In this document: in pieces, positions 2,646-3,161 of the stretch | Layout of the letters: each line of letters opens with the position of its first letter | Position numbering within the stretch: position 1 is the stretch's first letter | DNA from: Escherichia phage ECO95 1-6-1 | Sequence record: OR845352.1 | Length of the DNA: 3,161 nucleotides | Direction: 5' to 3' (one strand) | Notes under the pieces: model-generated | Databases searched by the model: none | Told to the model about the DNA's origin: nothing | Seen by the model: only the letters and a program-made list of their open reading frames with translations | Position numbers and translations under genes: made by a program

Positions 2646-2727
2646 TGTTTTGTTATGAAGGTGTTACTGGTAACGTTAAGGTAATTTAACAAAGAGTCAG
2701 TTCCGGACTTTATAGTGTGCTCAGTTC

Positions 2728-2868
2728 ATGGCCAAAAACGATTTCTGTGATAAATATTTTGAATATTATTTACAGGTAAATGGAGTGGGGCGCATGGATA
2801 GAAATATTACAATAGAGTATGAAGTATATGCCCGTATTGTATGGGCAGAGAAGGCAAAAACACGGTAA
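2728..2868 (+). CDS. Possible small ORF (46 aa from ATG 2728; 24 aa from ATG 2794, which has the better SD)
   Basis: Open frame reading MAKNDFCDKYFEYYLQVNGVGRMDRNITIEYEVYARIVWAEKAKTR. The internal ATG 2794 is preceded by GGAG at 2782-2785; ATG 2728 has no obvious SD. AT-rich with atypical composition and no recognisable homology. This is speculative. Confidence 0.2.
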   Translation: MAKNDFCDKYFEYYLQVNGVGRMDRNITIEYEVYARIVWAEKAKTR

Positions 2869-3108
2869 TTCCGTGTGTTGCCATGATACCTGATTGGCAG
2901 AATAGTTGTTTGGTTTTGAGTATATAGTCAGCGTCTTTTGTTCGGTAATTGCTCTTTCAATTAAAATGCCAGATATGATTTGCTTTTCTTTGTTGTTTAG
3001 TTTTTTTGTATATTATTTTTATTGTTTTTATATAATTAGTTTTTTATTGTTGTCTTATTAAGGACGGTAAATTCAGGATGGCAGTCTGTAGATAATCGGA
3101 GGTCACTT

Positions 3109-3161
3109 ATGCTACATGATCACCTGGCAGAATGTCTGGAGAAAAAAGGACTGTACCGGAG
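3109..3161 (+). CDS. 5' end of a downstream gene (partial; MLHDHLAECLEKKGLYR...), product unknown
   Basis: ATG at 3109 is preceded by a strong SD (GGAGG at 3098-3102, 6-nt spacing). The frame is open to the window end. It lies immediately downstream of a long AT-rich non-coding tract, which is typical of a moron or cargo gene with its own promoter. Only 17 codons are visible. Confidence 0.45.
   Translation, partial: MLHDHLAECLEKKGLYR

Follow-up and report, generated by a model that had tools for sequence, protein, structure and literature searches.

The classic late-region morons of phage lambda, bor and lom, are accessory genes that lie beside the late genes and are expressed from the prophage; bor, a lipoprotein gene read from the opposite strand, occupies the slot directly after Rz/Rz1. 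The closest described counterparts of the locus considered here are the three pch genes of E. coli O157:H7 Sakai, pchA (ECs_1091, prophage Sp4), pchB (ECs_2182, Sp11), and pchC (ECs_2737, Sp14), each of which lies directly after Rz/Rz1, beyond a spacer of about 465 bp. These PerC homologues, carried on lambdoid prophages, are needed for full LEE expression and for adherence (PMC4456613, PMC6265319). The activation of LEE1/ler by pchA/B/C is credited to Iyoda and Watanabe 2004, as cited in PMC4456613 and PMC6265319, and is also given in PMC4764244, according to which the protein binds in the promoter region of LEE1 and there remodels the complex of H-NS and StpA. The pch genes are themselves controlled. 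LrhA is a direct activator of pchA and pchB (Honda 2009, as cited in PMC4456613 and PMC13012123). The pchA promoter responds to butyrate by way of Lrp, the native PpchA-pchA unit has found a second use as a butyrate sensor (PMC7279287), and SOS induction raises the expression of group 1 pch genes (PMC6265319). According to Melson and Kendall 2019, as relayed in PMC7769764 and PMC7873438, translation of pchA is blocked by pairing of its Shine-Dalgarno sequence (SD) with an anti-SD in the coding sequence (CDS), and the small RNA DicF lifts this block under low oxygen. The PerC protein of the EPEC plasmid pEAF (perABC), which shares PF06069 with the pch products, is likewise a published activator of LEE1/ler (PMC4456613); it differs in being plasmid-borne, in an operon, and under the control of PerA (PMC4456613), whereas pch is a stand-alone prophage moron with an AT-rich region of its own.

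The DNA analysed here, referred to as the window, is a stretch of 3,161 nucleotides from Escherichia phage ECO95 1-6-1 (OR845352.1). It contains the antiterminator gene Q (520-1038), a holin gene (1503-1706), with genes for tRNA-Asn (GTT, 1101-1175) and tRNA-Thr (TGT, 1182-1257) between the two, a lysozyme gene (1678-2181), and, on the plus strand, the Rz spanin gene (2178-2645; PF03245), in which Rz1 is embedded at 2398-2583 and which is the last backbone gene before the pch cassette. Homologues of this Rz are annotated as lysis protein or endopeptidase and match PF03245. The tRNA-Asn/Thr pair is annotated likewise in Salmonella phage vB_SosS_Oslo, and the Sakai pch prophages have tRNA-Ile/Arg at this place.

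The Rz stop codon, TGA, occupies 2643-2645 and is separated by a spacer of 463 bp (2646-3108) from an ATG at 3109. The initial annotation had noted a good SD and start codon here, in front of a gene that it did not recognise. The signals are as described: GGAGG at 3098-3102 on the plus strand lies 6 nt upstream of the ATG, and from there the frame runs without a stop to the window's edge and translates as MLHDHLAECLEKKGLYR. The gene, by contrast, is readily recognised as pch. All 17 visible residues (3109-3161, plus strand) are identical to those of PchB and WP_001302717.1, a PerC family regulator, including the Leu6 that distinguishes them from PchA, which has Val6. In E. coli O103:H2 12009, the same ORF runs on to the 104-aa WP_001302717.1, and this exact protein is named PchABC/PerC family regulator in public sources. 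The protein and HMM search that had been recommended was made on this full-length relative, the window itself showing 17 residues, and returned Pfam PerC, PF06069, at E=5.4e-44 and 148.8 bits (gathering cut-off 22.6). The rest of the pch CDS, and its intactness in the window's genome, would follow from the relatives.

At the DNA level, 3066-3161 is 98-99% identical to the three Sakai pch genes. The 516-bp region that comprises the spacer and the visible codons has 688 matching records in 673 of the 5426 complete E. coli genomes, at a median of three places per genome and with identities of up to 99.2%, and all the matches among those listed carry the annotation "PerC family transcriptional regulator". 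The visible residues are near-identical to the 104-aa PchA/B/C, which places the gene in group 1 as opposed to the PchD/PchE of groups 2 and 3. Among species-representative genomes, relatives of Pch are present only in E. albertii and an Escherichia sp., and a PDB sequence search found no solved structure of a PerC-family protein. The gene at 3109 is a group 1 pch gene with a pchB-type allele, that is, an EHEC regulator known already and studied since 2004. The supposition that the window holds part of an undescribed system must be abandoned, as group 1 pch is annotated in hundreds of E. coli genomes.

The tract in front of pch had been characterised as an abrupt change to very AT-rich DNA with multiple T and A tracts and no ORF of 60 aa or more. 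GC is 0.489 in 1-2645 and 0.335 over the spacer as a whole, within which it is 0.370 in 2646-2934 and 0.221 in the AT core, 2935-3065; after the core, it goes back up to 0.44-0.49 in the leader and pch, the pch CDS having 0.492. By a binomial estimate from the segment GC values, the core lies about 6 SD under the upstream composition. GC does fall after Rz, but in steps, without a single abrupt break. The T/A-tract string given as an example is found at 3001-3049, and neither strand of 2646-3108 has an ORF of at least 60 aa. The longest ORFs are 46 aa (2728-2868, plus strand) and 51 aa (2906-3061, plus strand, TTG start), and a minus-strand ORF of 44 aa (2558-2692) starts inside Rz and extends 47 nt into the tract. 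On the basis of its GC content, the lack of a match in Rfam, Pfam, or NCBIfam, and the presence of the same spacer before Sakai pchA/B/C, the plus-strand tract 2646-3108 is assigned as the 463-bp non-coding regulatory region of pch, with promoter region and 5′ leader. The idea that the cargo brings an AT-rich regulatory region of its own has held.

The limits of the mobile unit come from phages that lack it. In 387 phage records that have the Rz 3′ end without pch, similarity ends at window position 2637-2638; in the pch-less phages, it returns at position 5950 of the O103 copy (locus L001), about 170 bp past the pch stop. The point of return is inside a DUF3950 gene, and HNH and terminase genes come next. 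From these points of loss and return, the unit is a moron of about 0.96 kb, the left part of which is 2638-3161 on the plus strand. Its parts are the 463-bp upstream region, a CDS of 315 bp (104 aa), and an intrinsic terminator just after pch (about 5816-5845 in L001, outside the window); judging from relatives, it goes on for about 430 bp past the window, with the remaining CDS, the terminator, and a short tail. The initial annotation had expected most of the system to lie beyond the window. Since the cargo is a single 315-bp gene and a terminator, little is hidden there. The comparison of related phages that it called for shows that the slot is variable: phage BP-4795 has the same backbone and holds only a 362-bp spacer in place of the cassette, and Stx phages are also without the pch cassette at the homologous site. 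The cassette occurs in 672 of the 5426 complete E. coli genomes, in a median of three copies, and sits behind at least two lysis cassettes, one of the Stx-phage type, with an antirepressor gene between lysozyme and Rz, and one in which an rrrD-type lysozyme is directly followed by Rz, as in the window.

Two marks by which a moron is known can be read off this locus: the spacer and its core, at 0.335 and 0.221, differ in base composition from the upstream DNA at 0.489, and the cassette is present in some phages and absent from otherwise homologous ones. As to a promoter and terminator of its own, the terminator is seen in L001, promoter function is published for PpchA (PMC7279287), and the pchB-type allele shows weak matches to promoter consensus. 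The order Q, tRNAs, holin, lysozyme, Rz/Rz1, pch is a lambdoid one that is laid out alike in Sakai, as fits group 1 pch. Unlike bor, pch is read in the direction of the late operon, and its product is a DNA-binding regulator; no sequence similarity to bor or lom was found. We put the probability that 2638-3161 makes up the 5′ two-thirds of a pch moron, inserted in lambdoid prophages between Rz/Rz1 and the packaging genes, at roughly 0.9. The post-Rz slot holds real accessory cargo, as had been proposed, and it is known biology, not a new system.

Other readings of the tract have to be set against this one. The initial annotation had itself raised the alternative of a conserved structural or packaging gene at 3109, in which case the tract would be no more than the usual spacer separating the lysis module from the packaging module. 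The tract does lie at the end of the lysis module, and in relatives the terminase genes are no further off than about 1.3 kb. However, the whole 0.96-kb segment is missing from phages that share both this Rz and the DUF3950-HNH-terminase genes, and the ORF encodes a PerC-family regulator and not a packaging protein. Moreover, none of the isolated phages in the collection has the cassette, except for one unannotated fragment of 1.6 kb: a megablast of the tract against isolated phages gave no match, and a tblastn of Pch against phages gave only that fragment. This alternative has practically no chance of being right. It could also be argued that the tract, besides regulating pch, carries a product of its own, either a small protein, ORF46 (2728-2868, plus strand), or a minus-strand sRNA ending at 2877-2861. 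ORF46 is intact in 53 of the 54 aligned copies, 578 blocks of a public assembly index list it as a gene, a terminator-like hairpin is present on the minus strand of the tract (ACACGG-TAATT-CCGTGT followed by a T-run, 2861-2877), and the segment 2646-2934 is kept at 95.5-99% among the paralogues. Yet at about 3% divergence, intactness is to be expected by chance; the substitutions in ORF46 are 10 nonsynonymous and 2 synonymous, without a third-position excess, and the ORF has no SD and no Pfam or NCBIfam match. Since the substitutions are mostly nonsynonymous and an SD is lacking, ORF46 is, from its substitution pattern, probably an annotation artefact and not a gene. As for the hairpin, the substitution A2863T breaks its stem in Sakai pchB and in the O103 copy, which makes its function doubtful; upstream of it, the minus strand shows neither a gene nor a promoter-like site; and an Rfam scan of the window (E<=1) finds only the two tRNAs, leaving the tract empty, just as a scan of the three Sakai pch prophage regions finds no family adjoining pch. 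A product encoded by the tract is, accordingly, very improbable, and we retain 2646-3108 as the regulatory region of pch. The ORF of 51 aa (2906-3061) was rejected as a gene, its reading frame being disrupted in 49 of the 54 aligned copies.

Some pch copies elsewhere are probably pseudogenes, because truncated or frameshifted genes occur and because one locus (L091, 6141-6780) has no PerC gene called between ORF46 and the DUF3950 gene. Of the full-length copies in IMG/VR loci L009-L069, at least two have a truncated or frameshifted pch and another encodes a Pch extended at its C-terminus (products of 25, 72, and 133 aa); where other products are short, a contig end cuts the locus.

Alignment with Sakai pchA/B/C shows that the AT core (2935-3065, plus strand, GC 0.22) is a sharply bounded allelic segment, of the pchB type in the window. 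Over its 131 bp, it is 100% identical to Sakai pchB and to the O103 copy, 71.6% to pchA, and 69.9% to pchC, whereas the flanks of the spacer are at least 95.5% identical to all three Sakai genes. Nucleotide diversity among the 54 copies peaks at about 0.1 in the core and is 0.0055 in the pch CDS and 0.003 in the Rz 3′ end. As judged from these alignments, the protein is strongly conserved while the core upstream of it exists as discrete alleles. With Sakai pchB, the window shares the position after Rz/Rz1, the entire core, 98.6% of the left spacer, and the 17 residues with Leu6; it departs from pchB at bases 3097 and 3105, which flank the SD and are of the pchA/pchC type, and from Sp11 in its backbone, in which Q, the tRNAs, the holin, and the lysozyme are Salmonella P22-like. 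With pchA and pchC, it shares the cassette, its boundaries, and its spacer length, spacer flanks and leader at 96-99% identity, and a near-identical protein, and it differs from them in the core (only 72% and 70% identical in round figures) and in the predicted -10 elements. Since pchA/C-type bases stand by the SD next to a pchB-type core, the allele of the window is itself recombinant. Of 687 E. coli records, a single one (O157:H7 strain 7.1_Anguil) matches 2900-3108 at 99% identity or more, and 530 match at 95-99%. In Sakai Sp4 (L074, 22131-29827), the holin-lysozyme-Rz-pchA block is inverted relative to the rest of the late region and bracketed by IS629 and ISEc8.

The promoter elements predicted in the core vary by allele. 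A candidate -10 hexamer, TATAAT, is present at 3031-3036 on the plus strand of the pchB type only, with a poor -35 (3/6); at these positions, the pchA/C alleles carry GCGTGG or C.G.G. A standard promoter scan did not pick TATAAT 3031-3036 and found fewer promoter-like sites in the sequence than in its shuffled counterpart. It is probable that the 131-bp core sets the differential regulation of the paralogues.

How might the locus work? In a lysogen, the AT-rich region would serve as an independently regulated promoter region, responding to LrhA, as do pchA and pchB, and to Lrp with butyrate, as does pchA, and the low-GC tract, with its 22%-GC core, may be silenced by H-NS. Translation of pch would be gated by pairing of the SD with the early CDS and relieved by DicF under low oxygen, as published for pchA. 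In a local fold of 3094-3132, a candidate anti-SD in the CDS, UGAUCACC (3117-3124, plus strand), can pair with the SD, such that 3098-3099 and 3101-3105 pair weakly with 3117-3124 (-4.7 kcal/mol). The predicted pairing fits the SD/anti-SD model that Melson and Kendall 2019 put forward, as that model is described in PMC7769764. In the near-identical O103 copy (L001, 5415-5560), the fold of the leader and CDS start does not exceed that of shuffled sequences (z = -0.39). The predicted DicF-pch duplexes are marginal, 4-6% of shuffled sequences being equally good, and the role of DicF is for this reason taken from the literature; the full-length duplex prediction was discarded because its output was physically unrealistic. 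DicF genes are found in the prophages of pchA and pchB (L074, 5733-5784, minus strand, in Sp4; L101, 34582-34633, plus strand, in Sp11), and therefore the regulator RNA and its target pch travel on the same elements. Another sRNA from prophage late regions, HnrS (PMC13502914), is encoded on Sp9, Sp10, and Sp12 and not on the pch prophages.

Upon prophage induction, pch may in addition be read through from the Q-antiterminated late transcript. No plus-strand terminator was found between Rz and pch, and since the gene lies on the late-operon strand, read-through is to be expected on induction; such late read-through would agree with the published rise of group 1 pch expression in the SOS response. 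Once made, Pch would bind the LEE1/ler promoter region and counter H-NS/StpA silencing there, so that the type III secretion island and other acquired virulence genes would be turned on. In a host other than LEE-positive Escherichia, the downstream target of Pch would differ.

The backbone on which the cassette lies is unusual. Salmonella enterica prophages of the P22-like or lambdoid kind (BTP1-like, S. Kentucky, and S107 phages) match window 1-2184 at 99.9% identity, and the window's holin and lysozyme occur in exactly this form in Salmonella; among complete E. coli genomes, the best identity over 520-2184 is about 95%, and none of the 5426 covers 80% of it. Rz is itself a mosaic, identical from 2176 to 2257 to the Salmonella phage Oslo type and of the E. 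coli type from 2228 or 2239 on, with a 30-nt stretch, 2228-2257, that is identical in both. The hybrid Rz protein is absent from an index of 15 billion proteins, the exact junction pattern from species-representative genomes, and the mosaic of the window both from 61 IMG/VR loci that have the junction and from 15 loci that have the Rz joint; the window as a whole is in no collection searched. The mosaic arose either by natural recombination between genera, as a rare event, or as a chimera during assembly over the shared 30-nt stretch.

An assembler could have joined a Salmonella prophage contig to one of an EHEC pch prophage across this conserved part of Rz. The Salmonella character of 1-2184, as against the E. 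coli cassette of 2239-3161, the 30 identical nucleotides between the two types, and the lack of any record of the hybrid Rz or of the whole window all speak for such an event. Nonetheless, lambdoid phages are naturally mosaic, the succession lysozyme, Rz, pch recurs in E. coli prophages that are about 95% identical to the window over 1683-3161, and there are at least two breakpoints, at 2184/2185 and at about 2258, which favours serial recombination over a single misjoin. We therefore consider an assembly chimera unlikely; in either case, the identity of 2646-3161 is unchanged. That the window comes from a genuine prophage of Salmonella or another non-Escherichia host, P22-like or lambdoid, which captured a pchB-type cassette through recombination in Rz, is possible, if doubtful. 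No report of a Salmonella-type prophage with a pchB-type cassette was found, and the collections searched hold no second example.

The question of the unrecognised gene is closed: it is pch, among the best-known prophage-borne virulence regulators of EHEC, and the tract before it is its regulatory region. The bounded core, in which the pchA/C and pchB types diverge by about 28-30%, is the likeliest DNA behind the published differential regulation of pchA and pchB. If the prophage does belong to Salmonella or another non-Escherichia host, a master activator of the LEE that acts against H-NS would be present in a genus without the LEE, where it would act on other xenogeneically silenced loci. 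A pch cassette on a Salmonella-like late region, if real, would mean that this virulence regulator has moved between genera.
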